Below are positions 32,602 to 54,652 of a DNA stretch of 64,000 nt, one piece after another. The notes under the pieces are model-generated. The model was not told the origin of the DNA. It did no database searches and worked only from the letters and a program-made list of their open reading frames with translations. Every line of letters begins with the position of its first letter. Position 1 is the first letter of the stretch. Both the position numbers and the translations under genes were made by a program. Source of the stretch: Chloroflexota bacterium (lineage in GTDB: Bacteria > Chloroflexota > Anaerolineae > Anaerolineales > Villigracilaceae); assembly GCA_037440925.1 (NCBI GenBank), contig JBBITF010000006.1, positions 1-64,000 of the forward strand, given 5' to 3'.

Positions 32602-32668
32602 GGGGATAGGGGGGAGCAGATGTGCAAATCAGCCGTCTTCCTGCCCCCTATCCCTTGTTGTTTCTTTG
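32602..32668 (+). terminator. Attenuator/partial intrinsic terminator between dsrC and dsrM
   Basis: GGGGATAGGGGGGAGCA ...21-nt loop... CTGCCCCCTATCCC followed by TTGTTGTTTCTTT. Confidence 0.45.
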
Positions 32669-32675
32669 AGGCACT

Positions 32676-33422: not shown

Positions 33423-33433
33423 GAGAATAACCT

Positions 33434-34879: not shown

Positions 34880-34894
34880 CCCTTGGAGACAGCC

Positions 34895-35197: not shown

Positions 35198-35659
35198 ATG
35201 GTGAGCGCTATGACGGATACTTCTGTTTCCTCTCCTAAACCTTCCATTTTCTCCCGCCGCCGCCAGTTTATTCAACTGGGCTTCTTGACGGTGGCAGCCG
35301 CCTGGCTGGGAACATGGCTGCAAGCGCGTCTCTTCCCGGCCGCCAGCGCCAGCCAGGAAGCTGCGCCGGTCTCTTTTCCATTGAGCGACTTGCCGGTTGG
35401 CGGAGCCAAAGCCATTACGTATGGCGGCATTCCTGTATTGGTATTGCGCACCCCGCAGAGTCTCCGCGCCTTCTCGTTGATTTGCACGCACCTGGGCTGT
35501 ATTGTGGAATGGCAAGATAACAAGAAGGAATTTTATTGCCCTTGTCACGATGGCCGCTATGATGAATTTGGCGATGTGTTGGCCGGCCCCCCGCCCATTC
35601 CGTTGGAGCAATTTGCCGTGCGCATCGAGGGCGAACAAGTCATCGTCGGCGAGGCTTGA
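35198..35659 (+). CDS. TAT-exported Rieske [2Fe-2S] protein
   Basis: Twin-arginine motif SRRRQFIQ. Rieske boxes CTHLGC and CPCHDG. TAAATG overlap with upstream gene. Confidence 0.8.
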   Translation: MVSAMTDTSVSSPKPSIFSRRRQFIQLGFLTVAAAWLGTWLQARLFPAASASQEAAPVSFPLSDLPVGGAKAITYGGIPVLVLRTPQSLRAFSLICTHLGCIVEWQDNKKEFYCPCHDGRYDEFGDVLAGPPPIPLEQFAVRIEGEQVIVGEA

Positions 35660-35674
35660 GGCAGGAGAATGAAC

Positions 35675-36049
35675 ATGAAACGTTTTCTAATTTTCTTCGG
35701 TTCACTGCTTGTGACTGTGGCGTTGCTGTTGGCCCTCTTGCCCGCTGCTACGGCCCAAGCCCTTCCCGAATATTCAGCGCAGACCGGGGAACCCTGCGCC
35801 TCTTGTCACATCAGCCCCTCGGGCGGCGGCCCCCGCGGCCCGCGCGGGCAGGCCTGGGTAGCCTCCGGCAAACCCGGCGCCGTGCCGGATACGCTCCAGG
35901 CGCTCGAATTGCTGGGCGTCGAATTGAGCGTGGATCCGGCCTATTTTACGGCAACAGGTTTCGAGGTCCAGGAACCGGAAGCGCTGCAGGTCGCTCCGGC
36001 CCAGAGCGTGCGCTTGTACCGTTGGTTGAGTCAATATGATGGCAATTAG
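35675..36049 (+). CDS. Secreted monoheme cytochrome c
   Basis: Signal peptide and a single CASCH motif. ATG 35675 preferred over 35669 because of AGGAGA RBS spacing. Confidence 0.65.
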   Translation: MKRFLIFFGSLLVTVALLLALLPAATAQALPEYSAQTGEPCASCHISPSGGGPRGPRGQAWVASGKPGAVPDTLQALELLGVELSVDPAYFTATGFEVQEPEALQVAPAQSVRLYRWLSQYDGN

Positions 36050-36080
36050 TCGTCGTGCGTTGATCGGTAAAGGATAGCCT

Positions 36081-38450: not shown

Positions 38451-38477
38451 TTGGAATTTTATATTTGGAGGTAGAAC

Positions 38478-39164
38478 ATGCCCCGCTGGGGAATGGTCAT
38501 TGACCTGGACAAATGCTTTGCCTGCCAGAGCTGCACCGCAGCCTGCCGCATGGAAAACAACACGCCTGTGGCCGGAAAGAACCAGGCCGATATGGGGCGC
38601 GCCATCCTGTGGAACGAGGTCTTGCCGTTCATAGAAGGCGAGTATCCCAATATCCACACCACCATGTTGCCGCGCCCGTGTATGCACTGCGACAACCCAC
38701 CCTGCGTTAAAGTCTGCCCGGTGCAGGCGACTTACAAAAACGAAGAAGGCATCGTGCTGGTGAACTACGATCGCTGTATTGGCTGCCGCATGTGCACTGT
38801 GGCTTGCCCTTATGCCGTGCGTTACTTCAACTGGTACCCCCCCGAATGGCCCGAGGAACTGAAAGCGCACTTGAATCCAGAACCGGAAGTGCAGCCTCGT
38901 CCTAAAGGCGTGGTCGAAAAATGTACCTTCTGCTTCCAGCGTTTGCGCAAAGCGCGTGAAGAAGCCGATGCAGAAGGTCGTCCTTTCAACGCCACTGACT
39001 ACACCCCTGCCTGCGTGCAAACCTGCACCGGCCACGCCCGCTACTTTGGCGACCTGGATGACCCGAACAGCCTGGTCTCTAAACTGGCGCATAGCCCGCG
39101 CGCCTTCCGTATGTTCGAAGAACTTGGCACACAGCCCAAAGTCTATTACTTGAAGCAAGGGTGA
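38478..39164 (+). CDS. 4x[4Fe-4S] ferredoxin-type electron-transfer subunit (PsrB/DsrO/NrfC-like)
   Basis: Four Cys clusters (CFACQSCTAAC; CMHCDNPPCVKVCP; CIGCRMCTVACP; CTFCFQR...CVQTC). No own signal peptide, consistent with TAT hitch-hiking on the A subunit. Confidence 0.8.
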   Translation: MPRWGMVIDLDKCFACQSCTAACRMENNTPVAGKNQADMGRAILWNEVLPFIEGEYPNIHTTMLPRPCMHCDNPPCVKVCPVQATYKNEEGIVLVNYDRCIGCRMCTVACPYAVRYFNWYPPEWPEELKAHLNPEPEVQPRPKGVVEKCTFCFQRLRKAREEADAEGRPFNATDYTPACVQTCTGHARYFGDLDDPNSLVSKLAHSPRAFRMFEELGTQPKVYYLKQG

Positions 39165-39168
39165 TGAT

Positions 39169-40497
39169 ATGGAACCCAAGAATCAAAACGTACAGCAAAT
39201 CCTTGCTCCCGTGCGCCGCGTTTCGGCTGGCGATTACCTGCTGTGGGGCGTCTTGCTTGCCTTGTTGTTGACCGGCCTGGGCGCCTGGACGTGGCAATTC
39301 ATCGAGGGCTTGGGCATCACCGGCATGAACCGCCCGGTCTATTGGGGCGTATACATTACCAACTTCGTTTTCTTCATCGGCCTGGCGCATTCCGGCACCT
39401 TCATCTCGGCCATCTTGCGCATCGCCGGGCAGAGTTGGCGCGCCCCGCTCACCCGCGCTGCCGAAGCCATCACGCTTTTCAGCCTGCCCTTCGGTGCTGG
39501 CTCCATCATTATTGATATGGGGCACCCCGAGCGCATCCTCAATGTCATTTTCTATGGACGTTACCAGTCGCCCATCCTGTGGGATGTGACAGCCGTCAGC
39601 CTGTATATGCTCTCCAGCATCATCTTCTTCTACTTCTCGCTCATCCCCGACATTGCGATTTGCCGCGACCGCCTCACCGACGCTCCGCGCTGGCAGCGCC
39701 GCATGTACCAAATCCTGGCTCTGGGTTGGAAGCACCATCCTGAGCAATATCGCCGTCTGGAAAAAGTGCTGGATGGTATGGCCGTTTTCATGACCATGTT
39801 GGTCGTCACCGTTCACACTGTGGTTTCCTGGCTGTTTGGCATGACCGTCCAACCTGGCTGGCATACCGCCTTGATCGGGCCGTTCTTCCTGTTGGGCGCC
39901 ATCCTATCGGGAACGGCGGCGGTGGTGATCACCTTGGCCATCCTGCGCAAGGTCTATCATCTGGAAAATGTCTTGCATGTCGGCCTGTTCAACTCTTTGC
40001 GCAAACTGTTGATTACCTTTGTCCTGGGCTGGCTGTACATGATGATCGCCGAGCATCTCACCATTGGTTATAGCAGCATGACCGAAGAGATGGTCGTCCT
40101 CAACGACAAATTCAGCGGCACCTTCTCGTTGATTTTCTGGAGCATGGCTACCTTCGTGTTTGGTCTTCCTTTGCTCATCTTCCTCTTCAAAGGCAAGAAC
40201 AATATCGGTTGGATGGTGTTTGCCTGTGTCCTCATCAATATTGGCATGTGGCTGGAGCGTTACATTGTCATCATCCCTACCGAGGTTAGCCCGCGCATGT
40301 TGCATGTCATGGGACAGGGACACTACCTCCCCCAACTGCCTGAAATCCTCATCACGATTGCCTGTTTCGCTGGCCTCATCCTGCTCTACGCGGTCTTTAC
40401 TCGTTTCTTCCCCATTGTTCCCATCTGGGAGACGGCTCAGGAACTGCCCGGCCACGCGCATTCTCAGCCGGCTCCGGCAGCCGCAGCCAGCGATTAG
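39169..40497 (+). CDS. NrfD/PsrC-family polytopic membrane quinone-interacting subunit
   Basis: 442 aa with about 10 TM helices, NrfD-like (DsrP/PsrC/ActC) organisation. 4-nt gap after the FeS gene. Confidence 0.75.
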   Translation: MEPKNQNVQQILAPVRRVSAGDYLLWGVLLALLLTGLGAWTWQFIEGLGITGMNRPVYWGVYITNFVFFIGLAHSGTFISAILRIAGQSWRAPLTRAAEAITLFSLPFGAGSIIIDMGHPERILNVIFYGRYQSPILWDVTAVSLYMLSSIIFFYFSLIPDIAICRDRLTDAPRWQRRMYQILALGWKHHPEQYRRLEKVLDGMAVFMTMLVVTVHTVVSWLFGMTVQPGWHTALIGPFFLLGAILSGTAAVVITLAILRKVYHLENVLHVGLFNSLRKLLITFVLGWLYMMIAEHLTIGYSSMTEEMVVLNDKFSGTFSLIFWSMATFVFGLPLLIFLFKGKNNIGWMVFACVLINIGMWLERYIVIIPTEVSPRMLHVMGQGHYLPQLPEILITIACFAGLILLYAVFTRFFPIVPIWETAQELPGHAHSQPAPAAAASD

Positions 40498-40515: not shown

Positions 40516-40704
40516 ATGAACATTGGCGGTTTGGTTCACGCATATTTCGACAATGCCGGCCCGGGCGGAGTCTTTGTCTTGCTGGTTGTCGGCGTTGCCT
40601 GCACTACCTACTACCTCCTGGCCCGCTGGTTCGTAGCCGGCGGTAGAACAGAGAGCCAGGCAGTTCCTTCTACCGATGAACAACCTGTGAGCATGGACGA
40701 ATGA
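40516..40704 (+). CDS. Small single-TM membrane protein
   Basis: 62 aa. ATGA overlap with the downstream gene. Hydrophobic core GVFVLLVVGVACTTYYLLA. Confidence 0.4.
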   Translation: MNIGGLVHAYFDNAGPGGVFVLLVVGVACTTYYLLARWFVAGGRTESQAVPSTDEQPVSMDE

Positions 40705-42791
40705 AACGACGAATTCTGCTTCCCTCCCTGGTCTTCCTGGCGGTCCTGACGCTGGCCGTCGGCTCCGTCTCCGCTTCCTCCCTCGACTTCAGCCTGCCTG
40801 CCTCGGCCGAAGGAGAGACTCTCGTCTCCGGCAATTACTGCGCCTCCTGTCATCTGACCGATGACCCGCGCCTGGCGTCTGCCACGGCTTGGAAAGGCGG
40901 CATCCAAAGCAAAGTCAACTCGCCCTGCCCGGCAGCCATCAAAATACACGAAGAACTATATTACACCGAACGGTTGCTGCTCATGATCGAACGCGCCGAA
41001 AACGCAGTTGGCCCCTTGCCCGAAAAGAGCCAGGCTCGTTTGGAGGACTATACCCAGCGTTACAGCCGTATGCTCGATACGCCTGTCGGCAGCCTGGACG
41101 CTTTCGTCAGTGAAGCCCAGTCAACTCGTTATCAGTTGAACAAGGCCTATGCTGCGCTCAATCAAATGGCGCAAGACGCCAAACAGCGCACAATCTTGAC
41201 GTATGCGGCGGCGATTACCTTGATTGTGCTTGGCTCATTGGCCTGGGGCGTGTACAACTCCCGCGCGCTGGCCTCTGGAAAGGTGAGCCGATCTTGGGGG
41301 CTATTCTGGCGTGTGCTGTTTATCGTGGCTGTTGTGGCGTTCTTTACCTTGCCTTTCTTCCGTGTGCCGGCCGAAGAGGTGGTGATGACCACTGCCGAAC
41401 AGCAGGAAGCCCAGGCAACCCTCGATGCCGCTCAACGCGCAGCCGACGCTGCCGACCGTTCGCAGGCGCGCGCCTGGATGTTAGCCCGCGTTGCGGCTGC
41501 CTATGCCGAAATGGACGCCGCCCAAGCCCAGGCTATCCTGGATGAAGCGCTGACCTCGCTCGACGTAGCCCGCAAGAACGAAGAAGCCCTGTGGGGGCAA
41601 AGCCTGGTCGTGCAAGAAGTGACGGTTGGCACCAAAATCGAAATGGAATCGGCCGGCCTCATCACCGCCGACCTGAACGCTGCCCGCGCCCGCGCCTGGG
41701 CCTTGCCGCTGGTTGCCCGGCAGTGGAACGCCCTCGATCCAATCAAAGCCGCCGCCCTCTTACAGGCCGAACAGGACGCCCTGATTGGCCAAGAAGGCCT
41801 CTACCGTGATTTACAATTGCGCGCCCTATCGCTGGCCTGGGTCGAAGTGAATCCTTCCAAGGCCGCCCCTGCTGCCGCCCAAATACAGGACGCTTCCCTG
41901 CGCGCCTGGACCTTCCGTGAACTGGCGGACCTGACCCACAACCCCTCACTCTATGACAAAGCCCTCCAGGCTGCGCGTGAAATCACGGACCCTGTCCAGA
42001 AAGCGCGCGCCCTGCGAGAGATTGCCCACTCTTCTGGCAAGAGCGCCCTTTTCGAGGAAGCCCTGACCGCGCTAGATGGCGTGACCGACCCCGCTTTGGC
42101 CTATGCCCTCAGCGACCTGGCCGCTGCCTGGGGCAACGCTTCTCTGGTCGAAAGAATCGCCTACCCCGATGCCCGCGCCAGCGCCTTGCTGCGCATGGGA
42201 GAATACCCCTCCGCTTGGGAGGCGGCGGCAGGCATCGCTGATCCTTACGAACAGGCGCGCGCCCAAGCCGCCATTGCTTCTGCCTGGGGCAATGCCGATG
42301 CCGCCATGCAGATTGCTGTCCCCTTATACCGCGATTTGGCATTGCGCGATGTCATCCGAAAAACGGGAAATACGTCACTGGCAGAGGCAATTACCTCCAA
42401 GTACTATAAAGTCCAGGCTCTAACTGCTCTAGGCGAGACCGAATCTGCCCTCCAAGTAGCCGCCGACCTGGGCGAAACCTACCCCTTGGTTGATTTGGCT
42501 GTCCATTTGTCCGCCTCCAATCCGCAGGCGGCGTTGGCCTTGGTCGAGCAGATGAAGCGCGAAAGCGACAAAGCCATTGCCTTGCAGGCTATTGCTGTTG
42601 CCTCGCAGGACCCGTCGCTCATCGAACAGGCGCAGGGCATGGCACTGGCCGCCCGCGTGCGCGGCGACTCGCTGGCCCCGGCCCAGGCTTTGCTCGATCT
42701 TGCAAATGCCCTTCTGGAAGTAGATGTCAAATACGCAGAAGCAGCCTTTCGTCAGGCGTATGAAGCGGCGCAGCGCATTGCAACCAAATGA
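40701..42791 (+). CDS. Monoheme cytochrome c fused to two TM helices and a ~450-aa Ala-rich alpha-helical repeat domain
   Basis: Signal peptide. CASCH heme motif at residues 48-52. TM helices near residues 175-230. Then about 31-aa repeats (…DP..QKARALREIAHS…; …DPALAYALSDLAAAWGN…; …DPYEQARAQAAIASAWGN…). Confidence 0.6.
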   Translation: MKRRILLPSLVFLAVLTLAVGSVSASSLDFSLPASAEGETLVSGNYCASCHLTDDPRLASATAWKGGIQSKVNSPCPAAIKIHEELYYTERLLLMIERAENAVGPLPEKSQARLEDYTQRYSRMLDTPVGSLDAFVSEAQSTRYQLNKAYAALNQMAQDAKQRTILTYAAAITLIVLGSLAWGVYNSRALASGKVSRSWGLFWRVLFIVAVVAFFTLPFFRVPAEEVVMTTAEQQEAQATLDAAQRAADAADRSQARAWMLARVAAAYAEMDAAQAQAILDEALTSLDVARKNEEALWGQSLVVQEVTVGTKIEMESAGLITADLNAARARAWALPLVARQWNALDPIKAAALLQAEQDALIGQEGLYRDLQLRALSLAWVEVNPSKAAPAAAQIQDASLRAWTFRELADLTHNPSLYDKALQAAREITDPVQKARALREIAHSSGKSALFEEALTALDGVTDPALAYALSDLAAAWGNASLVERIAYPDARASALLRMGEYPSAWEAAAGIADPYEQARAQAAIASAWGNADAAMQIAVPLYRDLALRDVIRKTGNTSLAEAITSKYYKVQALTALGETESALQVAADLGETYPLVDLAVHLSASNPQAALALVEQMKRESDKAIALQAIAVASQDPSLIEQAQGMALAARVRGDSLAPAQALLDLANALLEVDVKYAEAAFRQAYEAAQRIATK

Positions 42792-42812: not shown

Positions 42813-43196
42813 ATGTTGAATGAATATACCGGTAAGCGCGTTCTTGTGATTGCCACCTTTGGTTCTGCTAACCCAGAGCGCGGCCCCGGTCCATTTGTCT
42901 TTGCCGGCGAAGCCGCCAGGGGCGGCGCTGAAGTCATGCTCATCTTTGTCTTGCAAGCGCCGCTGCTCCTCAAGCGGGGCGTTGCGGAGAAATTGTATGC
43001 CAAACAAGGCGGGCGTACCATCCGCGAATTCATTGATGATGCCCTGCGGCTTGGGGTAAAATGCTATGTGTGTGATACGGCGTTGCAACTTTGCGACATG
43101 ACGCCCGAAGACTTGATTGAAGAAGTGGACGAACTGGTCGGCCCCAGTTTCTTGATCAAACAAGGATTACAGGCTGATCTGGTTCTCTCTTTCTAA
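42813..43196 (+). CDS. DsrE/DsrF-family (sulfur-relay-like) protein
   Basis: 127 aa, KRVLVIATFGSANPERG N-terminus characteristic of the DsrE/DsrF/TusD fold. Conserved Cys (CYVCD). Confidence 0.55.
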   Translation: MLNEYTGKRVLVIATFGSANPERGPGPFVFAGEAARGGAEVMLIFVLQAPLLLKRGVAEKLYAKQGGRTIREFIDDALRLGVKCYVCDTALQLCDMTPEDLIEEVDELVGPSFLIKQGLQADLVLSF

Positions 43197-43463: not shown

Positions 43464-44888
43464 ATGACTGCTCGAACCCGTCATGCGCCTCGTCTGGTCA
43501 TTGCGGCGCCCCAGGGTCGAAGTGGAAAAACCACCCTGACCTTGGGATTGTGCGCCGCATTCAAAGCGCGCGCGCTGACCATCCAGCCCTACAAAAAAGG
43601 ACCCGATTACATTGATCCCTCCTGGCTGAGTGAAGCCGCTGGAACCCTCTGCCGTTCCCTAGACCCTTTCTTTTACGAAAAGCCCGAAGAACTCTTACGG
43701 GCTTTTCTGCGCTCTGCTCCTCAAGATGGGGTGAGCCTGATCGAAGGCAATCACGGCTTGTTTGACTCCTTCGATGAAAGCGGACGAGGTAGCACGGCTG
43801 CGGTTGCGCGCACGTTGCAGGCTCCCCTCCTGTTGGTGATCAATGCCGCCCGCATGGGGCGCAGCGCCGCGGCCATCGTGCATGGCTGTCAAACCTTCGA
43901 GCCAGAAACGAACATCGCCGGCGTGGTTCTGAACAACGTAGCGCAAGGTCGCCACGAGGCCCGTATGCGCCAGGCCATTGAAAGTCGCTGCGGTGTGCCT
44001 GTATTGGGCGCCATTCCACGCGACGAAACCCTGACCATCCCCGACCGTCACCTGGGATTGGTGCCTCGCGCCGAACAAGACGCGCTTCTTCCCGCCATCA
44101 CAGCCTGCCGGCAGACTATCGAGCGCTACCTCGACCTCGATGCTGTCCTGGCTATAGCCCGGGCTGCGCCTGCTTTACCCGCTCCCTCTCCGGCCTCCTC
44201 CGCGGCCCAGCCGGTCTCGCATCGGCCGCTCATCGGCGTCCTGCGCGACCGTGCCTTTACCTTCTACTACCCTGAAAATTTAGAAGCCCTGGAAGAAGCC
44301 GGTGCCGACCTGCTCTTCCTGGACGCTTTGCGTGACGCCGAATTGCCCCCTGTAGACGCCCTCTACATCGGCGGCGGCTTCCCCGAAATATTCATGGACG
44401 AGTTGTCTGCCAACGTTTCTCTGCGCCGCGCCATCCGCGAAGCCATCGAAAACGACTTGCCGGTCTACGCCGAATGCGGCGGCCTGATGTACCTCTCCCA
44501 GCGCATTGTGTGGGGCGAAAAATCGGCCGAGATGGTGGGCGCCTTGCCCTGCGAAATCGAAATGACCTCCAAACCCCAGGGACATGGCTACGTAACTGCC
44601 CAGGTGGAGGCCGAGAATCCTTTTTTCTCGCCGGGCCTGCTCTTGCGTGGACATGAGTTCCACAACTCGCGGCTTGTAATGCTCCCTGGCAACCGCCTTG
44701 CAACGGCTTATCGCCTCTTGCGCGGCAATGGAGTAGGCGATGGCCGCGATGGGCTTCTTTACCGTAACACATTGGCTTCTTACACTCATTTGCATTCTGG
44801 CGGAGCGCCTGACTGGGCCGTTGGCCTGGTTCATCGGGCGCAGGTTTATCGAGAAAACCGCCTACAAGCAGAAATGGATAACAGATGA
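43464..44888 (+). CDS. dsrN: DsrN (cobyrinic acid a,c-diamide synthase homologue; siroheme amidase)
   Basis: CbiA/CobB architecture with N-terminal P-loop (APQGRSGKTT) and C-terminal glutamine amidotransferase domain (YAECGGLMYL). Located in the dsr locus. Confidence 0.75.
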   Translation: MTARTRHAPRLVIAAPQGRSGKTTLTLGLCAAFKARALTIQPYKKGPDYIDPSWLSEAAGTLCRSLDPFFYEKPEELLRAFLRSAPQDGVSLIEGNHGLFDSFDESGRGSTAAVARTLQAPLLLVINAARMGRSAAAIVHGCQTFEPETNIAGVVLNNVAQGRHEARMRQAIESRCGVPVLGAIPRDETLTIPDRHLGLVPRAEQDALLPAITACRQTIERYLDLDAVLAIARAAPALPAPSPASSAAQPVSHRPLIGVLRDRAFTFYYPENLEALEEAGADLLFLDALRDAELPPVDALYIGGGFPEIFMDELSANVSLRRAIREAIENDLPVYAECGGLMYLSQRIVWGEKSAEMVGALPCEIEMTSKPQGHGYVTAQVEAENPFFSPGLLLRGHEFHNSRLVMLPGNRLATAYRLLRGNGVGDGRDGLLYRNTLASYTHLHSGGAPDWAVGLVHRAQVYRENRLQAEMDNR

Positions 44889-46015: not shown

Positions 46016-46085
46016 ACGATCATGATCGCTCAACTCCCTACTTTTCTTTTGAGAGGACCTAAAATTTTTGTTGAAGAGGTTTCCA

Positions 46086-48944
46086 ATGCCAAACGATGCA
46101 CAAAATAAGACAGCCAAGAACCAAGAGCAAGCCTGGCACGCGCTGCCTGTCGAGGAAGTGCTTCGCCACCTCGAAGTGCAGGAAAATGGATTGAGCGCCG
46201 AACAGGCTGCCCAACGTTTGAAACAATATGGACCGAACCAATTGCAGGAAGCGCCGCGCCCCACCTTTTGGCACATGCTGTGGGAGCAGTTGAACAACTT
46301 TGTGGTCATCCTGCTCATCGTGGCATCCATTATTTCTGCCCTCTTGGGCGATTACGTGGAAGCCGCTGCCATCATGGCCATCGTCGCGCTGAATGCCGTT
46401 CTCGGCATCATTCAGGAACAGCGCGCCGAAGAAGCCCTGGCGGCATTGAAAAAATTGGCCGCGCCCGATGCCCAGGTGCTGCGCGATGGCCGCCGGCAGA
46501 CCATCCCGGCGCGCGACCTGGTGCCCGGCGACATCGTCTTCCTGGAAGCAGGCAATTTCGTCCCGGCGGATGTGCGCCTGCTCGAGGCGGTCAACCTGCG
46601 CATCGAAGAGGCCTCCCTCACCGGCGAGTCCCTGCCGGTGCAGAAGAGCGCCGTTTCCATCATTGACAAGGATGTGCCGATTGGCGACCGCAAGAACACC
46701 GCCTTCATGGGGACGACCGTTTCCTACGGGCGCGGACGCGGCGTGGTGGTCAGCACCGGGATGCGCACCCAGTTGGGCCTGATCGCCACCATGCTCCAGA
46801 CCGTGGAAACAGAGGAAACCCCGCTCCAGCGTCGCCTCGATCAGTTGGGCAAGACCTTGAGCATCGCCTCGCTCATCCTGGTTGCCATCGTCTTCGTGGT
46901 GGCTTTGCTCGATTACACCAATATCAATTTGCTTTTCAGCGGGCCGCTGGATTACTTCAAATCCTATAGCCGCGAGATTACGGATGTGTTCATCATCGCG
47001 GTCAGTCTGGCGATTGCAGCCGTGCCAGAGGGCCTGCCGGCCGTTGTGACTATCAGCCTGGCGCTGGGTATGCGCGAGATGATCCGCCGTCACGCCCTCA
47101 TCCGCAAACTGGCCTCTGTGGAGACGCTTGGCTCGGCCACCGTCATCTGTTCCGATAAGACCGGCACCCTGACTCAGAACGAGATGACCGTTACGCGCCT
47201 GTGGGCCGACGGCCAGTTCTTGCATGTCACCGGCACGGGCTACGTTCCGCAAGGAGAGTTTCAGGTGGATGGGAAGACAGTGGACATCAAGAACTATCCC
47301 GCCATCCTGACCTCCCTGTGGCTGGGCGTGCTGAACAACGACGCCGACATCGAGATTACCGGCGAGACTGAGGACGAAAAGACCTACCGCATCGTGGGCG
47401 ATCCCACCGAGGGCGCGTTACTTGTGGCGGCGGCCAAAGCAGGCGCCTTCCACGTCGAGGTGAAGCAGGCCTACCCGCGTGAGAACGAAGTGCCGTTCGA
47501 CTCGGAACGCAAGCGTATGATCACCATCCACGATGTAAGCCAACCGCGCCCGGAGGATATTTCCCCCTTTTATGACAACAAGATGAAGGATTGGGAGGTG
47601 ATTGCCGTCAAAGGCGCGCCCGACATCGTGCTGGGATTGTGTTCCCATTACCAGACGATGGATGACAAATCGAAACCGCTGACCGAAGAACAGCGCCAGC
47701 GCATCTTAGCCGCCAACGACGAGATGACGAAAGATGCTCTGCGCGTGCTGGGCGTGGCTTACCGCATCGTAAAAGAAGTGCCACAGACGGCTGACGGCTT
47801 GAAACCCGAAGAACTGGAAAAAGACCTGGTCTTCGTCGGCCTCTTGGGCATGATTGACCCGGCGCGTTTAGAAGTCAAACCTGCGCTCGAACAGGCGCGC
47901 CAGGCCGGCATCCGCACCGTCATGATCACCGGCGACTATCCTAACACCGCGCGCGCCATCGCCGAATCCATCGGCCTGATGAAGCGCCGCACGCGCGTGC
48001 TGACCGGCGCCGAAGTAGACAAAATGTCTGACGATGGGTTGCGCGACGTCATCGAGGAGACGGCCGTCTTTGCGCGCGTCTCGCCGGAACACAAGATGCG
48101 CATCGTGGACGCGCTGCAAGCCAATGGCGAAGTGGTCGCCATGACCGGCGACGGCGTCAACGATGCCCCGGCCATCAAGCGCGCCGACATCGGCGTAGCC
48201 ATGGGCATCACCGGCACCGACGTGGCCAAGGAAACCGCCGACATGGTGTTGACCGACGACAATTACGCCAGCATCGTCTCGGCGGTCGAGCAGGGACGCA
48301 TCATTTACAGCAACATCCGTAAATTTGTATATTATCTGCTTTCCTGCAATGTGGCAGAAATCCTGGTCATCTTCCTGGGTACGCTCATCTCGAAGAGCTC
48401 TCCTCTCACGGCTATCCAATTGCTCTGGCTCAACTTGGTGACCGACGGCGCCCCTGCTTTGGCCCTGGCCACGGAAAAGGGAGATCCAGACATTATGTCT
48501 CGTTTACCCCGTCCAAAGAATGAACCCATTATCAATCGTTTCATGCAATTGGGCATTCTTGTCCAAACGCTTGCCATTACCAGCGTGACGCTGGGGGCCT
48601 ACTTCTTGGGGTTGAAACTTCACCCCGAACAGCCCGAGTTTGCAGAAGCCATGGCGTTCGTTACCTTGTCACTCTCTGAACTGGCGCGCGCTTTTACGGC
48701 TCGCTCGGAATACTACCCCTTGTTCAAAATCGGGGTGTTCACGAACCGCAATATGAACCTGGCGATTCTACTTTCGGCCGCTTTGATCTTTGCGGTCATC
48801 TACATCCCATTCTTCAACCCCATTTTCAATACCGTTCCGCTAGGCTGGCAACAATGGGAAGTGTTGCTGCCTTTGCTCCTGGTGCCATCCCTGGCTGCTG
48901 AGATACTCAAGTATATCCATCAAAAAACTCGGAAACAGGATTGA
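46086..48944 (+). CDS. P-type ATPase, type IIA (Ca2+/Mg2+-transporting, SERCA/PMR1-like)
   Basis: DKTGTLT phosphorylation motif, TGES, GDGVNDAPAIKRADIG hinge, 10 TM. ATG 46086 (alternative TTG 46068). Confidence 0.85.
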   Translation: MPNDAQNKTAKNQEQAWHALPVEEVLRHLEVQENGLSAEQAAQRLKQYGPNQLQEAPRPTFWHMLWEQLNNFVVILLIVASIISALLGDYVEAAAIMAIVALNAVLGIIQEQRAEEALAALKKLAAPDAQVLRDGRRQTIPARDLVPGDIVFLEAGNFVPADVRLLEAVNLRIEEASLTGESLPVQKSAVSIIDKDVPIGDRKNTAFMGTTVSYGRGRGVVVSTGMRTQLGLIATMLQTVETEETPLQRRLDQLGKTLSIASLILVAIVFVVALLDYTNINLLFSGPLDYFKSYSREITDVFIIAVSLAIAAVPEGLPAVVTISLALGMREMIRRHALIRKLASVETLGSATVICSDKTGTLTQNEMTVTRLWADGQFLHVTGTGYVPQGEFQVDGKTVDIKNYPAILTSLWLGVLNNDADIEITGETEDEKTYRIVGDPTEGALLVAAAKAGAFHVEVKQAYPRENEVPFDSERKRMITIHDVSQPRPEDISPFYDNKMKDWEVIAVKGAPDIVLGLCSHYQTMDDKSKPLTEEQRQRILAANDEMTKDALRVLGVAYRIVKEVPQTADGLKPEELEKDLVFVGLLGMIDPARLEVKPALEQARQAGIRTVMITGDYPNTARAIAESIGLMKRRTRVLTGAEVDKMSDDGLRDVIEETAVFARVSPEHKMRIVDALQANGEVVAMTGDGVNDAPAIKRADIGVAMGITGTDVAKETADMVLTDDNYASIVSAVEQGRIIYSNIRKFVYYLLSCNVAEILVIFLGTLISKSSPLTAIQLLWLNLVTDGAPALALATEKGDPDIMSRLPRPKNEPIINRFMQLGILVQTLAITSVTLGAYFLGLKLHPEQPEFAEAMAFVTLSLSELARAFTARSEYYPLFKIGVFTNRNMNLAILLSAALIFAVIYIPFFNPIFNTVPLGWQQWEVLLPLLLVPSLAAEILKYIHQKTRKQD

Positions 48945-48952
48945 CTTAACGA

Positions 48953-48992
48953 ACGTCCCGAAGGTTCCAAAACCTTCGGGACGTTTTATTTT
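48953..48992 (+). terminator. Strong rho-independent terminator (also serves the convergent minus-strand operon)
   Basis: GTCCCGAAGGTT-ccaa-AACCTTCGGGAC followed by GTTTTATTTT. Confidence 0.8.
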
Positions 48993-49014: not shown

Positions 49015-50820
49015 CTACTCGCCCGTCAAACCGGCCAGCGTCCCATTCAGGTCTTCCTGGTAGGTGGTGTGACAGGTGCTGCAAAGCGCCAGTTGGGGCT
49101 TGTTTTGTTCGACGGCTTGCTGTTGGTGGCAGGTCAGGCAGCGGCCGTGCATGGCGTCTTTGTAACCGGGCGCCATGGCTTCAAATACAGTTTGGCCTTC
49201 GGCAGGCGTCATGGTCTCATGGCAATCCTGGCAGATCGCTGACGTTAACCGAATGTGTTCCTGTGCATGGCATTCCTGGCAACTTGCGTTCCCGCCCAGT
49301 TCCTGCTGGTGCAGGCTGTGATCGAAGATCGAAGCCGGGCGATAATAATCGGTGTGACAGGCCGAACATGCCGTCGCTTCATCGTTTGGGCGGTCCAGGT
49401 GATGGCAAACCTGGCAGTTGCTCTCGCCGGTGGCCTTATTCATCAAACGTTCCTGGTGCTCCAGATGGGGAAAATTGACTACATAGCCGCTGCGGTTGCC
49501 GTCTATTTGCAGCGGTTCCCAGCCTCTAGCCTCCATGACCGGCGTGGCAGGCGGCTGCGCTTTGACAATCAACACCGGCACCGCCAGCGCCATGACGAAG
49601 ACGGCCAGACGGCTGCGATGCGCGACGATGGCCCTCAGCCACGAGCCTTGACCGGCCAACCAGGTCGCCCTGGCGGGCGCCGCCGCTTCTTCCTCCGCTT
49701 CGGCCTGCTTGCCGAACAATTGCAGATTCTCGGCGAAGAACAGGTACAGCAAGAACGCCGCCGACGGGATGGCGAAGGCGATGGCCGTTTCGCCCAGCGA
49801 AGGGGTATAGGCTGTACCCGCCGCCCGGTACATGGTGAACATGCTCAGCGACATGCGCTGGCTCATGATGCCCAGAATGCCCAGCACGGCGCCGGTCAGC
49901 AGGCCCTCGCGCCTCTCTCGTGTCTTTTTGATGCTGAACAGGACAATGGGAAGCACCCCGCACAACAGGATTTCGGCCAGGAATAAAATGCTTTGCCAGG
50001 AACCATCCAGCGCGCCGGGCAGCACCCCGCGCAGAACCTGGTCGCCCAGGCGCAGCAGCAAGTACAGTCCCAGCGGCAGGGGCGTCCACTTTCCCAAAGT
50101 GGTCAGGATGTCGAAGTGCATCCCGCGTTTGAACCAGCGCTCGACAAAGAAGCCTTCTACAATTAACGCCATCATGCCGGCTGCAATGGCGCTGGTGAAG
50201 AACAGGTAAGGCAGCCAGGGACTATACCACAGCGGGTGGACGCGATGCGGCATGATGAGGAACAGCGATCCCAGCGAGGACTGGTGCAAAGTAGATAGAA
50301 CGATGCCGGCAATCACCAGCGGCAGGGTGAACTTGTGAAGCCAGTGCAGCAGGGTCTTGAAGAGCGGGTGGCGGAACCAGGGATGTTCCAGGATGACCGG
50401 AGAAAACTCCAGCACCAGCACCGAGAAATACAGCATCACACACCAGGCAATCTCGAACATGACCGAGTGATGCTGCCAACTGATGATGGGCATGTAAATG
50501 TGCCAGGGCAGGCCCAGGTCGAAAATCAGGGAGACGATGAATGAGCCGTAGCCCAGCAGAGCCACCAAAATCGCCCGCCGCAAGATGGGGCGGAAGAATT
50601 CCAGGTGGAAAATGTACACCAGTGCCGCCAGGGTGAAGCCGCCGCCGGCGATGGCGACGAACACCAGTTTGAAAGCGATCCACAGCCCCCAGGGGGCAGA
50701 GTCATTGAGTCCGGTAGCGGCCCCAAGTCCGGCAGCGAAGCGAATGATAGAGGCCACCAGGCCCGCCAGGGCGATGGCCCACAATCCATCTTTGATCCAA
50801 GTGCGCGTAGTCGTGTTCAC
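49015..50820 (-). CDS. NrfD-family membrane subunit fused to a C-terminal hexaheme cytochrome c domain
   Basis: About 400-aa NrfD/HmcC/DsrP-like N-terminal part (≥8 TM). Then six CxxCH motifs (CQVCH, CSACH, CQECH, CQDCH, CLTCH, CSTCH) in the last ~160 aa. Confidence 0.7.
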   Translation of the reverse strand: MNTTTRTWIKDGLWAIALAGLVASIIRFAAGLGAATGLNDSAPWGLWIAFKLVFVAIAGGGFTLAALVYIFHLEFFRPILRRAILVALLGYGSFIVSLIFDLGLPWHIYMPIISWQHHSVMFEIAWCVMLYFSVLVLEFSPVILEHPWFRHPLFKTLLHWLHKFTLPLVIAGIVLSTLHQSSLGSLFLIMPHRVHPLWYSPWLPYLFFTSAIAAGMMALIVEGFFVERWFKRGMHFDILTTLGKWTPLPLGLYLLLRLGDQVLRGVLPGALDGSWQSILFLAEILLCGVLPIVLFSIKKTRERREGLLTGAVLGILGIMSQRMSLSMFTMYRAAGTAYTPSLGETAIAFAIPSAAFLLYLFFAENLQLFGKQAEAEEEAAAPARATWLAGQGSWLRAIVAHRSRLAVFVMALAVPVLIVKAQPPATPVMEARGWEPLQIDGNRSGYVVNFPHLEHQERLMNKATGESNCQVCHHLDRPNDEATACSACHTDYYRPASIFDHSLHQQELGGNASCQECHAQEHIRLTSAICQDCHETMTPAEGQTVFEAMAPGYKDAMHGRCLTCHQQQAVEQNKPQLALCSTCHTTYQEDLNGTLAGLTGE

Positions 50821-50821
50821 G

Positions 50822-51613
50822 TTATTGCTCCTCGGTGGGTTGACTCTGGCGCGCTTTTTGCGCCGCCTGTGCCTGCATACGCCGTTCGATAATCCAGAAC
50901 AGTCCGGTCATCAAACCCGCGGTGCCAATGGTAATGGCGGGTACCTTGCTTAGCCACTCCCAGGTCAGTTCTGGCATGGGCTTCTGGATAGGAGCGCCGT
51001 GATAGCCCAGGAAATCTAACGGAACGTGGGAAATGTACATTACGGCTGTGCCGCCGACTTCCTGCGCGCCATAGACGATGGGCAGATATTTGTGCGGGGC
51101 TTCCTGGATGCGCTGGTTGGCGATTTCGAGCAGTTCGCTCCTTTCGCCAAAGGTCAGCACCTTTTCAGGGCAGGTTTCTACACAGGCGGGCAGTTGTCCC
51201 TGTTGGATGCGGCCATAGCATAACGTACATTTCTGCACCAACGGCGCGGGGGAGTCCCATTCGTAGCGCGGAATGCCAAAGGGACAGGCCATCATGCAAT
51301 AGCGGCAGCCCATACACTTTTGGCTATCGTAGATCACTGCCCCTTCGGGCGTGCGGTACATGGCGCCGACCGGGCAGGCCGAGACGCAGGCCGGTTCCAG
51401 ACAGTGGCGACAGAATTTTCGCACGAAGCCGCCTTCGGGGCTTTCGACAATGGACGACCAGCGGCGCGCCGACAAGCCATCGGGAGATTGCTGCGGCAGG
51501 TATTCGAGCGCGCCCAGGTGGTTGACTTCGGCGCAGGCCTCCACGCATTGATTACAACCCGTACAGCGGGTGACATCCACTAAAATACCAACTTGTTTTA
51601 TCGTGCCGCTCAT
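50822..51613 (-). CDS. 4x[4Fe-4S] ferredoxin-type subunit with C-terminal TM anchor (HmcB/DsrO-like)
   Basis: Cys clusters CTGCNQCVEAC; CRHCLEPACVSACP; CMGCRYCMMACP; CTLC...CVETCP. C-terminal helix VPAITIGTAGLMTGLFWII. Confidence 0.75.
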   Translation of the reverse strand: MSGTIKQVGILVDVTRCTGCNQCVEACAEVNHLGALEYLPQQSPDGLSARRWSSIVESPEGGFVRKFCRHCLEPACVSACPVGAMYRTPEGAVIYDSQKCMGCRYCMMACPFGIPRYEWDSPAPLVQKCTLCYGRIQQGQLPACVETCPEKVLTFGERSELLEIANQRIQEAPHKYLPIVYGAQEVGGTAVMYISHVPLDFLGYHGAPIQKPMPELTWEWLSKVPAITIGTAGLMTGLFWIIERRMQAQAAQKARQSQPTEEQ

Positions 51614-52314
51614 ATTTTCCTCCCTTCGGGGCCATGAAGCGCTTGCACGGCTTTGCTGCCGGCTTGTGGGACGAAGTGCCAGGCAATTTCTGTGCTGAGG
51701 CGGATGAGGGGGAAGAGGACACAGTGGGCGATTTTGGTGAATGGCGTGACGAGCAGAAGAGCCATTCCATTCAGCGTGTGGAACAGCATTAGGCCGTTGT
51801 AAGGGATGGGGTTCCAGGGCTGCCCGGCAATGTAGCCGGAGAGGAAGATGTTGAAAATGAGTAACAACAGCACATAGTCGGCTGTCTTGCTCAAACGCCG
51901 CGAGGCCGGAACATACAGCCTGAACAGCAGCAACAGGCTGACCCCGACGATGCTGATGAGGGTCAGCACGTCTAGCACCGGCTTCGAGATGGCAAACCAG
52001 GCAATCCCGATGTTGTCCTTCAGAATGTCCAGGTGATTACGCAGGAAGAGGGACACAACCAGGATGCCGACGTGTAAGCCAAAAGAGGCAAAACTATAAG
52101 CGGCGCGGTTACGGTGCAGGCGGTTGAAGGGGAACAGCCATGAGAATGTCTGCACGACGATCTGCCGCATAGGAAGGCGGCGATCGCCGGCGCGGCGGAT
52201 GGCTGTAACCATATCCCAAACGGTCAAGGCAACCAGCCGCAGCAATGCCAGCGCGACCAGCGTCGCTACAAAGAAAAAGGCAGGGCCTTTGGCAAGCATC
52301 AACCAGGTTGGCAT
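51610..52314 (-). CDS. NarI/HdrE-like diheme b membrane protein (DsrM paralogue)
   Basis: 234 aa, 5 TM. Conserved His in helices. 4-nt overlap with the downstream FeS gene. Confidence 0.65.
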   Translation of the reverse strand: MPTWLMLAKGPAFFFVATLVALALLRLVALTVWDMVTAIRRAGDRRLPMRQIVVQTFSWLFPFNRLHRNRAAYSFASFGLHVGILVVSLFLRNHLDILKDNIGIAWFAISKPVLDVLTLISIVGVSLLLLFRLYVPASRRLSKTADYVLLLLIFNIFLSGYIAGQPWNPIPYNGLMLFHTLNGMALLLVTPFTKIAHCVLFPLIRLSTEIAWHFVPQAGSKAVQALHGPEGRKI

Positions 52315-52349
52315 ATCGAAAAGAGCCTCCTACTCATTAAAGTTGGATA

Positions 52350-53726
52350 TCAGGAAAGGTCAATGGCGCGCAACACCAGGTCATGCACGCCGACGATTTG
52401 AACGGGCAGTTTGTGATAATCTACCAATTCTCGCAGTTGTTTCTTGCAGTTGGCGCAGGGCGAGGCCACGATCTGCGCCCCGCTGGCGCGGATTTGTTCG
52501 GCTTTGGTTTTTCCTGAGACTTGCATACGGAAGTCGAAAGTTTCATCCAGTGAGACCAGGCCGCCGCCTCCGCCGCAGCAATAGTTTTCGCGGCCACGAG
52601 GCGTCATTTCGACAAAGTCGGAAACGAAACTGCGCAACAATTGGCGCGGCTGTTCGATGATCCAGCCCGAGCGGGCAATGTTGCAGGGGTCATGATAAGT
52701 GACGCGCTCGGTAATCACATCCTTTTTCAGCCGCAATTTTCCTTCTTGCGCCGCCTGCGCAGTCAATTCCAGAATGCTGACTACCGGCAACGCGCGTTCC
52801 CCGGCAAAGGCAGGGACGAATTGACGCGCCGAACGGGCGGCGTGACCGCACTCCCCGATCAAAATTTTTTGCGCTTTCAAGCGATGCGCTTCTTCGACCA
52901 GTTTTTCGATGATGCGTTCCAGCACCCAATCGTTGTAGAACAAGCCGTAGTTGATGCCATCGAAGTATTTCGAGCCAATCGTCCAGGAGACGCCGGCTGC
53001 ATAGAGTGCAGCGGCATTGCCCATGAGCGTGTCCGCTTCCATGAGGTAGTCGCTGACGGCCGGGAAGAAGATGTACTCGGCGCCTTCCTGGTCAACCGGG
53101 AATTTGATTTCTTTGCCGGTGGTGTCTTTCAATTCCTCTTCCAGGAACTCGATGTTGTCCATCAAGGCTGGTAGCGGAATGGCCGAGGTGTTGGCGGTTG
53201 CGCCTTCCAATTGTTCGCGTACTGAAACAACCAGGCCTTTGGGCGCGATGCCCGCTTCACTGAGAACATAGCGCCCCAGATGGGCAATCAGGCCGTGATC
53301 AATGCCCAGCGGGCAATCCAGCGTGCAGCGCCGGCAGGCGTTACAGCGATAGAAGAATTCGGCCATTTCGTCTATTTTTGCGTTGCTCAGACTATCTTTG
53401 GGAGTAGCCCAACCCAGCCAATTTCTATCGTCCGAAAAGTATTGCTTATATACGTCCAGCAGCAAATTGGTGCGATAGCAGGGTACATCATAAGGGTCAT
53501 TTGTAGTCTGGTAGACCTGGCAACTAGACGCACAGCGCCCGCATTTGGCGCTGGTTTTGGCATACAGTTCGATTAGAAAACGGTAGTTGCTGTTACGCAA
53601 AATGGCTTCAAAAGCCGCCAGAAAGCGTTCTGCCCGCTTGTCTAGTTCAGGCAGCGTGCTGGATTCGAGATGGTAAAAATAAGGTTGGGATAAAGCGTCG
53701 GTCTTCTTTTCGGCGGGAGTCGTCAT
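52350..53726 (-). CDS. HdrD/DsrK-like CCG-domain Fe-S protein (DsrK paralogue)
   Basis: Ferredoxin clusters (CGRCASSCQ; CNACRRCTLDCP). CCG motifs (YHDPC...CCGGGGG). Long identical stretches shared with dsrK at 33434 (e.g. FPVDQEGAE / FPVDEKGAE; VTYHDPCN). Confidence 0.8.
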   Translation of the reverse strand: MTTPAEKKTDALSQPYFYHLESSTLPELDKRAERFLAAFEAILRNSNYRFLIELYAKTSAKCGRCASSCQVYQTTNDPYDVPCYRTNLLLDVYKQYFSDDRNWLGWATPKDSLSNAKIDEMAEFFYRCNACRRCTLDCPLGIDHGLIAHLGRYVLSEAGIAPKGLVVSVREQLEGATANTSAIPLPALMDNIEFLEEELKDTTGKEIKFPVDQEGAEYIFFPAVSDYLMEADTLMGNAAALYAAGVSWTIGSKYFDGINYGLFYNDWVLERIIEKLVEEAHRLKAQKILIGECGHAARSARQFVPAFAGERALPVVSILELTAQAAQEGKLRLKKDVITERVTYHDPCNIARSGWIIEQPRQLLRSFVSDFVEMTPRGRENYCCGGGGGLVSLDETFDFRMQVSGKTKAEQIRASGAQIVASPCANCKKQLRELVDYHKLPVQIVGVHDLVLRAIDLS

Positions 53727-53738
53727 ATCATCACCTCG

Positions 53739-54296
53739 TTAAAGATTTTGAGAATGGGATGGAGGAAGCATCAATACTGCGATGCCGGTCGAGTCGCCGG
53801 TGTTGCGCCAGCGGTGGTAAGCGTCGCTGTTGAAAGCCAGGCTGTCGCCGGGGTTCAGGGTATAGGTTTGTCCGTCCAGTTCCAGTTCAACCTGGCCACA
53901 CAGGCATAAAATCGAGTGCCGGCGAGACGCCAGCGTTTCAGAGGGCGCAGCCGCTTTGGGCGCCGCAATCATACAGCCTGTGGTTTGAGGGGCGGTGGCC
54001 AGCAGTTGGAATGTCTGCCCGGCAATGTCGGCTTTGGCGGTGGCCTCATCTGCCCGCTGTAAGACCACAGCCGGCTTGCAAATTTCCAAAAATAGGGAAC
54101 TGGGCGTTACGCCCAGGGCGTGCGCAATTTTGCACAGGGTTTCGATACTTGGGGACACCTCGCTTCGCTCTACCATGCTGATGGTATTTGCAGACAGGTC
54201 GCACCCCCGCGCCAGTTGTTTGAGCGTCAGGCCATTTGCCTTGCGCAAGTAGCGGATCTTGTTACCTACATTGAGCCAGGTTTCGTGCGTTTTCAT
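53739..54296 (-). CDS. XRE-family HTH transcriptional regulator with C-terminal cupin domain
   Basis: HTH (LTLKQLARGCDLSANTISMVERSEVSPSIETLCKIAHALGV). Cupin-like C-terminus. ATG 54296. Confidence 0.7.
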   Translation of the reverse strand: MKTHETWLNVGNKIRYLRKANGLTLKQLARGCDLSANTISMVERSEVSPSIETLCKIAHALGVTPSSLFLEICKPAVVLQRADEATAKADIAGQTFQLLATAPQTTGCMIAAPKAAAPSETLASRRHSILCLCGQVELELDGQTYTLNPGDSLAFNSDAYHRWRNTGDSTGIAVLMLPPSHSQNL

Positions 54297-54474
54297 CGTT
54301 AAGACCTGAAAGAACAAGAACAATTTTCTTCTGTATCTTCTCGAAAGAGGCAGAACAGCCCTCTCGCTATTGAGAGGATACTTCTTCGACCTTTTCGGGA
54401 GCAAATTCGACTAAAGGGAGGCCTCGAAAAGAGCGTATTGTGCAAAAAAACACTATCTTTAATCTACCAAATTG

Positions 54475-54497
54475 TTGACAGGTCGTCAAGTATTTTG
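54475..54497 (+). promoter_or_regulatory. Palindromic operator-like site TTGAC-N6-GTCAA overlapping a TTGACA -35-like hexamer, in the regulator-proximal intergenic region
   Basis: aTTGTTGACaggtcgTCAAgtatttt. A second TGACAaTGTCA palindrome lies at 54617-54627. Confidence 0.3.
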
Positions 54498-54652
54498 TGT
54501 ATTTTGGTTGAAATTAAGTGACAAACAACAAAAAAATTGGTTATTTTTATCCCCCCTCCTCGGCAAACTCTACAGCCGCCAGATCAGGCGCTGTTTGCAA
54601 TGGTTTGTAACTATCTTGACAATGTCACATTAAACATTTGTTCTGGTAAATC

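Follow-up and report, generated by a model that had tools for sequence, protein, structure and literature searches.

In sulfate- and sulfite-reducing bacteria, the Hmc, Tmc and DsrMKJOP complexes transfer electrons among the outer side of the membrane, the quinones and the DsrC cycle in the cytoplasm; their partners and energy coupling are still debated. Here we describe a compact version of such a system, an operon of five genes on the minus strand of a 64,000-nucleotide stretch of DNA from a member of the Chloroflexota (Anaerolineales, Villigracilaceae; GenBank assembly GCA_037440925.1, contig JBBITF010000006.1, positions 1 to 64,000), called the window below, of which it fills positions 49015-54296. 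An XRE-cupin regulator gene is followed by four subunit genes, the cassette, in which the module set of Hmc (multihaem cytochrome c, iron-sulfur protein, NrfD protein, cytochrome b and CCG protein) is present within a single operon, the cytochrome being fused to the NrfD protein. We propose with moderate confidence that the four subunits assemble into a transmembrane redox complex of the Hmc type, with DsrC as the most likely thiol/disulfide partner.

Comparison with described systems

DsrMKJOP also combines a cytochrome b, a CCG protein, a cytochrome c, an iron-sulfur protein and an NrfD protein, and it shares the CCG motif with the cassette, for whose CCG subunit DsrK is the best-scoring model. 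The DsrM, DsrO and DsrP models, on the other hand, give only 19.1, 122.4 and 17.6 bits, and the cassette cytochrome, whose six CXXCH motifs are all standard, is a hexahaem protein of the c3 type, in contrast to the small, triheme DsrJ type of DsrMKJOP. In Tmc (TmcABCD), the CCG protein TmcB and the cytochrome b TmcC have counterparts in the cassette (214 and 91 bits, far under the cut-offs of 735 and 240) and a small c3-type cytochrome faces outward as well, but the pair of iron-sulfur and NrfD proteins found in the cassette is missing.

The Hmc complex of Desulfovibrio (HmcABCDEF) has a periplasmic multihaem class III cytochrome c, a tail-anchored HmcB with four [4Fe-4S] clusters, the NrfD-type HmcC, the NarI-type HmcE and the cytoplasmic CCG protein HmcF, and the cassette has the same five modules. 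The gene order is A-B-C-D-E-F in Hmc and F-E-B-C::A' in the cassette, named after the Hmc subunits and with the double colon marking the fusion. HmcB carries a twin-arginine translocation (Tat) signal that the HmcB-like subunit of the cassette lacks, the tail anchor being common to both, and HmcB and HybA are known as Tat-exported, tail-anchored proteins (PMC10924467). Regulation differs too, with rrf1 and rrf2 controlling hmc in D. vulgaris (PMC10924467) and an XRE-cupin protein accompanying the cassette in its Chloroflexota host. In Desulfovibrio, Hmc has been implicated in electron flow from hydrogen to sulfate and in electron export during syntrophy (PMC4215793).

The triad of iron-sulfur protein, NrfD protein and multihaem cytochrome c is also known from menaquinone:cytochrome c oxidoreductases (Nhc, Qrc, alternative complex III and groups 4 and 5 of Methanoperedenaceae), and unfused triads of this kind occur in the related loci L036, L038, L040 and L041. 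The cassette differs in having cytochrome and NrfD in one polypeptide and in combining the triad with a CCG protein and a cytochrome b. HybA and HybB of Escherichia coli hydrogenase-2 are 40% (iron-sulfur subunit) and 31% (NrfD domain) identical to their counterparts, which differ in the lack of a Tat signal on the HybA-like protein, the fused cytochrome and the attached CCG and cytochrome b subunits. No hydrogenase genes were found in the operon or its conserved neighbourhood, and the HybA and HybB scores lie under the cut-offs.

The family assignment rests on the scores and cut-offs of curated NCBIfam profiles. The CCG subunit scores 290.7 bits with DsrK (NF045796, cut-off 400), 213.6 with TmcB (735) and 192.6 with HmcF (NF045711, 750), and the cytochrome b subunit 104.2 with HmcE (NF045716, 275), 91.5 with TmcC (240) and 19.1 with DsrM (300). 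For the iron-sulfur subunit the values are 243.5 with HmcB (NF045715, 420), 180.1 with HybA (263) and 122.4 with DsrO (200), and for the NrfD domain 243.2 with HmcC (NF045714, 550), 232.2 with HybB (450), 128 with QrcD and 17.6 with DsrP (350). HmcE, HmcB and HmcC are thus the best models for three subunits and DsrK for the CCG subunit, and distant family members show the same pattern (HmcF 196-207 bits, TmcC up to 122). On these profiles the cassette is best described as an Hmc-type complex of the order F-E-B-C::A' without HmcD and with a six-haem cytochrome, rather than as an equivalog of the curated Hmc, Tmc or Dsr subunits.

A first-pass annotation made from the sequence had given the span of the operon and its five genes exactly, as the Pfam and NCBIfam matches (HTH_3 with Cupin_2, Fer4 with CCG, NarI-like, four [4Fe-4S] clusters, and NrfD with class III cytochrome c) agree. 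It had called the operon a rearranged DsrMKJOP/Hmc-type complex, of which the Hmc half is supported (HmcE, HmcB and HmcC as best models) and the second DsrMK set does not (DsrM 19 bits, DsrP 18 bits). A grouping with HmcEF instead of DsrMK, which it had named as speaking against its view, is seen in the profile scores of the M-like subunit and by half in those of the K-like subunit.

Neither the modules nor their logic is new. The features for which we found no precedent in the literature are the covalent link between NrfD and cytochrome, a gene order F-E-B-C that lacks HmcD, an iron-sulfur protein with no signal, an XRE-cupin regulator, and the spread of the family within Anaerolineae and beyond; full-text searches gave no account of NrfD::multihaem fusions or of the cassette, which is not proof of absence.

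The NrfD-cytochrome fusion protein

The fusion protein (601 amino acids; 49015-50820, minus strand) consists of an HmcC/HybB-type NrfD domain (residues about 1-372; 49705-50820) with ten predicted transmembrane helices and its N-terminus inside, an acidic linker with an eleventh transmembrane helix (residues 373-426; 49543-49704), and a hexahaem cytochrome c domain of class III (c3/HmcA/NhcA-like; residues 427-601 and the stop codon; 49015-49542) that is predicted to be extracytoplasmic. The presence of a hexahaem domain at the C-terminus of the NrfD protein had been noticed in the first-pass annotation and is borne out by six CXXCH motifs between residues 469 and 584, all of which are invariant in 50 homologues together with seven additional histidines. 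The domain scores 50.4 bits with Pfam PF02085 (Cytochrom_CIII; gathering threshold 22.9) and contains enough histidines for a predicted bis-His ligation of the haems. The AlphaFold2 model has ten transmembrane helices followed by the eleventh at residues 387-417 (about 397-420 by hydropathy) and a pLDDT (predicted local distance difference test) below 50 in the cytochrome domain, as expected for a model without haem. With confidence this low, the domain was compared by PDB sequence search instead, which matched the cytochrome c3 3cao (1e-7), the C-terminal part of the 16-haem HmcA 1z1n (1e-7) and the nine-haem NhcA 1duw (3e-6).

The NrfD domain reaches 74.4 bits with Pfam PF03916 (NrfD/PsrC family; gathering threshold 25.8), its ten modelled helices agree with the two-bundle fold of 8-10 transmembrane helices in this family, and its best solved folds in Foldseek are the ten-helix subunits ActC and ActF of alternative complex III (probability 1.0, TM-score about 0.56). 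Its loops contain 10 lysines or arginines in 55 residues predicted to be inside and 3 in 71 residues predicted to be outside, a distribution which, with the predicted helices, places the N-terminus of NrfD inside and would place the cytochrome outside, as the attachment of c-type haem requires. The eleventh helix is needed because the C-terminal domain must pass from the inside to the outside. It consists of a hydrophobic stretch between RSR and VKA and resembles a signal peptide that has been kept. Locus L040, where the end of an NrfD gene overlaps a cytochrome gene with a signal peptide of its own, suggests how the fusion may have originated.

Of 25 HybB residues of the quinone site and the proton half-channels, 18 are identical in the alignment and R193 and D260 are conservative replacements; of the six residues proposed for the quinone site, five are retained. 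R81, Y91, E138 and H179 correspond to R89, Y99, E148 and H184 of HybB, all identical, and replacement of these residues impairs hydrogen oxidation in E. coli (PMC8076601). The predicted topology would put the quinone-site residues close to the outside of the membrane, where other NrfD proteins have them as well (PMC8076601).

The CCG, cytochrome b and iron-sulfur subunits

The CCG subunit (458 amino acids; 52350-53726, minus strand) is an iron-sulfur protein of the HdrD/DsrK/HmcF type with Pfam matches to CCG and Fer4_8, two [4Fe-4S] motifs and one CCG domain. A hydropathy plot shows no hydrophobic segment, as in a soluble, cytoplasmic protein. The motif C348...C383-C384-G...C424xxC427 (CXnCCGXmCXXC), which DsrMKJOP also has, is invariant in 31 of 31 members, as are all 14 cysteines of the protein. 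With the DsrK encoded elsewhere in the window (33434-34879), which is a genuine DsrK with 526.5 bits on the DsrK model, it aligns from end to end at 34% identity over 451 residues (E 2e-84). Long identical blocks between the two proteins had been claimed, whereas the longest identical run is eight residues (VTYHDPCN) and at the DNA level only 157 nucleotides can be aligned, at 73% identity. A PDB search with the CCG subunit gave 9ojn (9e-12) as its sole match and no solved chain as close as a homologue of DsrK, HmcF or TmcB should be.

The next gene encodes a membrane cytochrome b of the NarI/HmcE/TmcC type (234 amino acids; 51610-52314, minus strand) with five hydrophobic segments by hydropathy, in which His81, His94, His179 and His197 are conserved in 31 of 31 members. 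Its annotation as a DsrM paralogue fails, as the pairwise comparison with the DsrM of the window gives no significant similarity (E 0.056) and the DsrM profile only 19 bits, against 142 bits for the DsrM of the window itself.

The iron-sulfur subunit (263 amino acids; 50822-51613, minus strand) is a ferredoxin of the HmcB/HybA type with 16 cysteines for four [4Fe-4S] clusters, all invariant across the family, and a C-terminal transmembrane tail anchor at residues 224-242. Around this anchor, lysines and arginines number 133 after the helix and 36 before it (summed over 32 sequences). From this charge bias and the predicted topology of the NrfD partner, the tail should be inside and the iron-sulfur domain should point outward.

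Distribution of the cassette

The fusion protein has more than 120 full-length clusters (90% identity) at 55% identity or above, and the few of them with organism names are labelled Chloroflexota or Anaerolineales. Distant relatives were searched among 1.84 billion cluster representatives: among the best 150 of the 50%-identity clusters, 51 are full-length NrfD proteins with 3-14 CXXCH motifs, 31 of them with exactly six, and genomic contexts of these were sampled. The complete F-E-B-C::A cassette occurs in 30 Anaerolineae loci from species-representative genomes and also in L043 (42% identical), L047 (39%) and L049 (36-38%). E-B-C::A without F is found in L048, and B-C::A alone in L050 (a bin labelled Polyangiaceae), L044 and L045.

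In about 22 of the Anaerolineae loci, the fusion gene is followed by a gene for a USP-like protein of about 180 amino acids without a Pfam match at E<=0.01 (for example L002 at about 9850-10404 and L019 at 9891-10442). It recurs beside the cassettes that are only 36-39% identical (L047 2373-2918, 34% identical; L049 4033-4596, 32%; E about 1e-28 to 5e-30) and has been lost from the window and its closest relatives L001, L017 and L025.

A model of electron transfer

From the domains, the invariant ligands, the predicted topology, the operon structure and their conservation we infer a single complex with the following architecture. The six-haem c3-like domain would be located outside, tethered by the extra helix to the ten-helix NrfD/HybB-type subunit, with the tail-anchored ferredoxin and its four [4Fe-4S] clusters beside it on the same side. 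Haem domain and iron-sulfur subunit would exchange electrons with an external partner and, at the NrfD site, with menaquinone. As the proton half-channels of NrfD are intact, the quinone step is probably coupled to proton movement. The dihaem cytochrome b would carry electrons across the membrane to the cytoplasmic HdrD/DsrK-like subunit, at whose CCG site a thiol/disulfide carrier may be reduced or oxidised; the likeliest carrier is the trisulfide/disulfide of DsrC, from the dsrABDC-MK system nearby. Electrons could flow in either direction. The XRE-cupin protein, encoded on the same transcript, would control the operon as a repressor or activator.

The cassette is a four-protein system in which the cytochrome cannot diffuse away. 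Being abundant in uncultured Anaerolineae and present in other lineages as well, it offers a simpler and very widespread system in which the substrate of the CCG subunit, proton pumping by the NrfD module and the way in which an iron-sulfur protein reaches the outer face without a Tat signal can be addressed. It also matters for annotation, as such operons are now labelled "polysulfide reductase NrfD" or "HybB-like", which masks a probable link to dissimilatory sulfur metabolism.

Arguments against a single Hmc-type complex and alternative explanations

Several observations weigh against the proposed complex. None of the curated equivalog models for Hmc, Tmc and Dsr is matched above its cut-off by any subunit. 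The cytochrome has six haems and is fused to the HmcC-like protein through an extra transmembrane helix, compared with 16 haems in the separate HmcA, and the cassette contains no gene for the small, hydrophobic HmcD, for which the intergenic gaps of 12, 35, -4 and 1 nucleotides leave no room. In Desulfovibrio itself the physiological partner of Hmc is unsettled (PMC4215793). The absence of F or E from loci with B-C::A (L048, L050) suggests that the two halves need not be one complex. For the partnership with DsrC, the evidence points both ways. In its favour, 12 of the 30 Anaerolineae loci have DsrN or its radical-SAM neighbour no more than 8 kb from the cassette (in L018 in a different arrangement), the distant cassette of L043 has a DsrMK-like pair at 5 kb, and the DsrC of the window keeps both redox cysteines. 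Against it, no dsr-associated gene occurs within 8 kb in the other 18 loci, and no DsrA, DsrB or DsrC homologue was found in any related locus. Adjacency of the cassette to the dsr locus therefore holds only loosely.

The export of the iron-sulfur subunit is a further point. No Tat signal is present on this protein in 37 of 37 hexahaem-fusion cassettes, including that of the window, and no gene with a Tat signal that could carry it across the membrane is found in the operon or in the conserved neighbourhood of about 37 loci. Its outward location, and hence the outer half of the electron path, is presumed. The protein lacks the Tat-carrying N-terminal extension of E. coli HybA and the HmcB model aligns to it only from model position 32 on. 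Throughout the hexahaem clade the proteins start a few residues ahead of the first cluster motif (signal-less genes: window 50822-51613, L001-L032, L039, L043 and L047-L050). Six of eight iron-sulfur proteins of unfused relatives, by contrast, have clear RRxFL signals, the exceptions being L033, which lies beside a molybdoenzyme with a Tat signal, and L040, which is not callable; those of the more distant fusions L044 and L045 carry Tat signals as well. A hidden signal was considered and rejected, since the open reading frame (ORF) in the window cannot be extended upstream in frame. N-terminal extensions in seven loci were likewise dismissed as products of ORF calling, as they overlap the preceding gene and have no hydrophobic region. 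Either the subunit hitch-hikes on an unlinked Tat substrate, or there is something new in its placement.

The four proteins could instead form two co-expressed, quinone-linked modules, a Tmc/DsrMK-like menaquinol:disulfide reductase made of the CCG protein and the cytochrome b, and an Nhc/alternative complex III-like menaquinone:cytochrome c oxidoreductase made of the iron-sulfur protein and the NrfD-cytochrome fusion, which would make a redox loop through the menaquinone pool with no direct wire between them. The loci with B-C::A alone or without F (L044, L045, L048, L050) agree with this, as do the pairs of CCG protein and cytochrome b that stand alone, such as DsrMK in the window and Tmc (PMC4215793), and the NrfD-iron-sulfur-multihaem clusters described as stand-alone menaquinone:cytochrome c oxidoreductases (PMC7327174). 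However, the order and tight spacing of the four genes are kept in 30 Anaerolineae species genomes and three distant lineages, and the equivalent five modules of Hmc and DsrMKJOP are treated as one complex (PMC10924467, PMC10504309), so that we consider separate modules possible but rather unlikely. The missing Tat signal leads to another explanation, in which the iron-sulfur subunit and the NrfD-cytochrome fusion serve as the membrane part of a periplasmic enzyme that is encoded elsewhere and exported through Tat, such as a [NiFe] or [FeFe] hydrogenase or a formate dehydrogenase, and on which the iron-sulfur protein hitch-hikes; in that case electrons from the oxidation of hydrogen or formate would enter here and pass to menaquinone and to the CCG site in the cytoplasm. 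Hitch-hiking of signal-less, tail-anchored iron-sulfur proteins on a hydrogenase is documented (PMC10924467), and it would account for a subunit that lacks the signal in every one of the 37 cassettes although its tail-anchor charges point outward. The 40% identity to HybA and the largely retained HybB residues fit as well, as does the context of two relatives, L033, in which the signal-less homologue adjoins the molybdoenzyme, and L037, in which a protein with an N-terminus of the Tat type precedes the pair. Still, none of the approximately 37 loci has a conserved neighbour with a Tat signal, while the partner in L033 is encoded directly alongside the iron-sulfur gene, and the fused cytochrome already provides an outward entry or exit for electrons. 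This makes a hydrogenase or dehydrogenase module improbable in our view.

The other branch, that the loss of the Tat signal marks a novel Hmc-like assembly or orientation, with the iron-sulfur protein on the cytoplasmic face or exported by a new route and the cassette coupling DsrC recycling to an outward haem wire, is likewise a doubtful proposition to which we give little weight. If true, the cassette, rather than DsrMK alone, would be a self-contained "DsrJOP substitute" that exchanges electrons with extracellular partners in Chloroflexota. These are widely regarded as single-membrane bacteria. Least probable of all is that the operon arose by recent duplication and rearrangement as another DsrMKJOP, with the same job as the neighbouring DsrMK, that is, reduction of the DsrC trisulfide. 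In favour of this are the best CCG profile being DsrK (290.7 bits), the end-to-end alignment with the DsrK of the window, a module composition equal to that of DsrMKJOP and a location in the same 25-kb region as dsrABDC-MK. It is largely refuted by an identity of only 34%, the lack of long identical stretches and the near absence of similarity at the DNA level, by M-, O- and P-like subunits with 19, 122 and 18 bits on the Dsr models (under the cut-offs and the Hmc scores), and by the hexahaem c3-type cytochrome of an old, widespread cassette. The recent duplication suggested in the first-pass annotation is excluded by this identity and by the occurrence of the same cassette across 30 species genomes of Anaerolineae and also in lineages with only 36-42% identity; the functional specialisation of two sets, its other suggestion, is plausible. 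An Hmc-type complex is the explanation that we favour.

Operon structure and regulation

The small gaps between the five genes indicate that they are probably expressed as a single transcript. A sigma-70-like promoter is predicted by a consensus scan at 54461-54489 (minus strand; TTGACG, 17 nucleotides, TG-n-TAGATT), about 165 nucleotides 5' of the regulator ATG, and its -35 and extended -10 blocks are kept upstream of eight related loci. The regulator is the first gene of the operon and encodes an XRE-type helix-turn-helix protein with a cupin domain (185 amino acids; 53739-54296, minus strand; Pfam HTH_3 1.3e-15, Cupin_2 1.9e-10). Its presence confirms the dedicated XRE/cupin regulator noted in the first reading, whose end coordinate, 54296, is the ATG; this start, read from the sequence, agrees with those of homologues. 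An XRE-cupin gene directly precedes the cassette in 25 of the 30 complete Anaerolineae loci, while some other lineages have two-component systems instead and L047 has a sigma-54 activator with Rrf2.

Four relatives (L002, L003, L005 and L006) have, upstream and in alignment with positions 54490-54560 of the window, two copies of a TTTAACCAAT-like element in inverted orientation around the -35 box, a candidate operator of the XRE regulator. The window has a diverged TTTAACCAAT-like version in this region together with a private palindrome, TTGAC-N5-GTCAA. This palindrome, which covers the -35 box, was itself tried as an operator and dropped as it occurs in the window only and in none of 24 relatives. 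About 20 Anaerolineae loci have a second, divergent XRE-cupin gene just 5' of the cassette regulator and about 30% identical to it (for example L002 3660-4178 and L003 3760-4287), compared with a single copy in the window.

At the other end, a 16-bp GC-rich hairpin (48951-48986), likely a terminator, is located in the 70-nucleotide gap between the fusion gene and a convergent gene for a P-type cation ATPase (46068-48944). The run of T residues that follows it is clear on the plus strand and weaker on the minus strand. A shared terminator had been placed between the operon and the dsr locus; the hairpin is there, but the neighbour across it is the ATPase gene, with dsrK ending at 34879, 14 kb away.

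The dsr neighbourhood and other genes of the window

The genes dsrA, dsrB, a DsrD-like ORF, dsrC, dsrM and dsrK are located at 29687-34879, and both redox-active cysteines are kept in DsrC. The nearest dsr-associated genes to the operon are those for DsrN (43464-44888) and a radical-SAM protein. The operon is thus at the edge of an extended sulfur island and not back to back with dsrMK.

On the 3' side of dsrK there follow genes for a dihaem cytochrome c of 104 amino acids (34883-35197), a Rieske protein (35198-35659), an unassigned 126-amino-acid ORF, a PhsA/QrcB-like molybdopterin protein with a Tat signal (36081-38450), an iron-sulfur protein (38478-39164; QrcC 267 bits, DsrO 192 bits with a cut-off of 200) and an NrfD protein (39169-40497; DsrP 108 bits). 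This Qrc/alternative complex III-like module at 34883-40497, attached to DsrMK, could be the DsrJOP equivalent of the organism, in which case the window would contain two separate modules of cytochrome c, iron-sulfur and NrfD proteins. A 696-amino-acid ORF without a Pfam or NCBIfam match (40701-42791) lies between the NrfD gene and that of a DsrE-family protein (42813-43196), which is near DsrN. The DsrD-like ORF of 69 amino acids (31998-32207), between dsrB and dsrC, was recognised by eye only. The presence of DsrD commonly counts as a sign of the reductive type, while DsrE is more typical of sulfur oxidisers. Their mixture agrees with a mention of a "chimeric" Dsr system of Chloroflexi in PMC10504309.

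In L043, a DsrMK-like pair (14314-15908; DsrM 50 bits, DsrK 240 bits for a truncated protein) is found 5 kb 3' of the 42%-identical cassette, with genes for a histidine kinase and a response regulator in between. Elsewhere in the window, a SecA ORF of 1324 amino acids (16645-20619) has a DEAD-like motor match that spans residues 11-430 with a profile of 290 positions, which suggests a large insertion.

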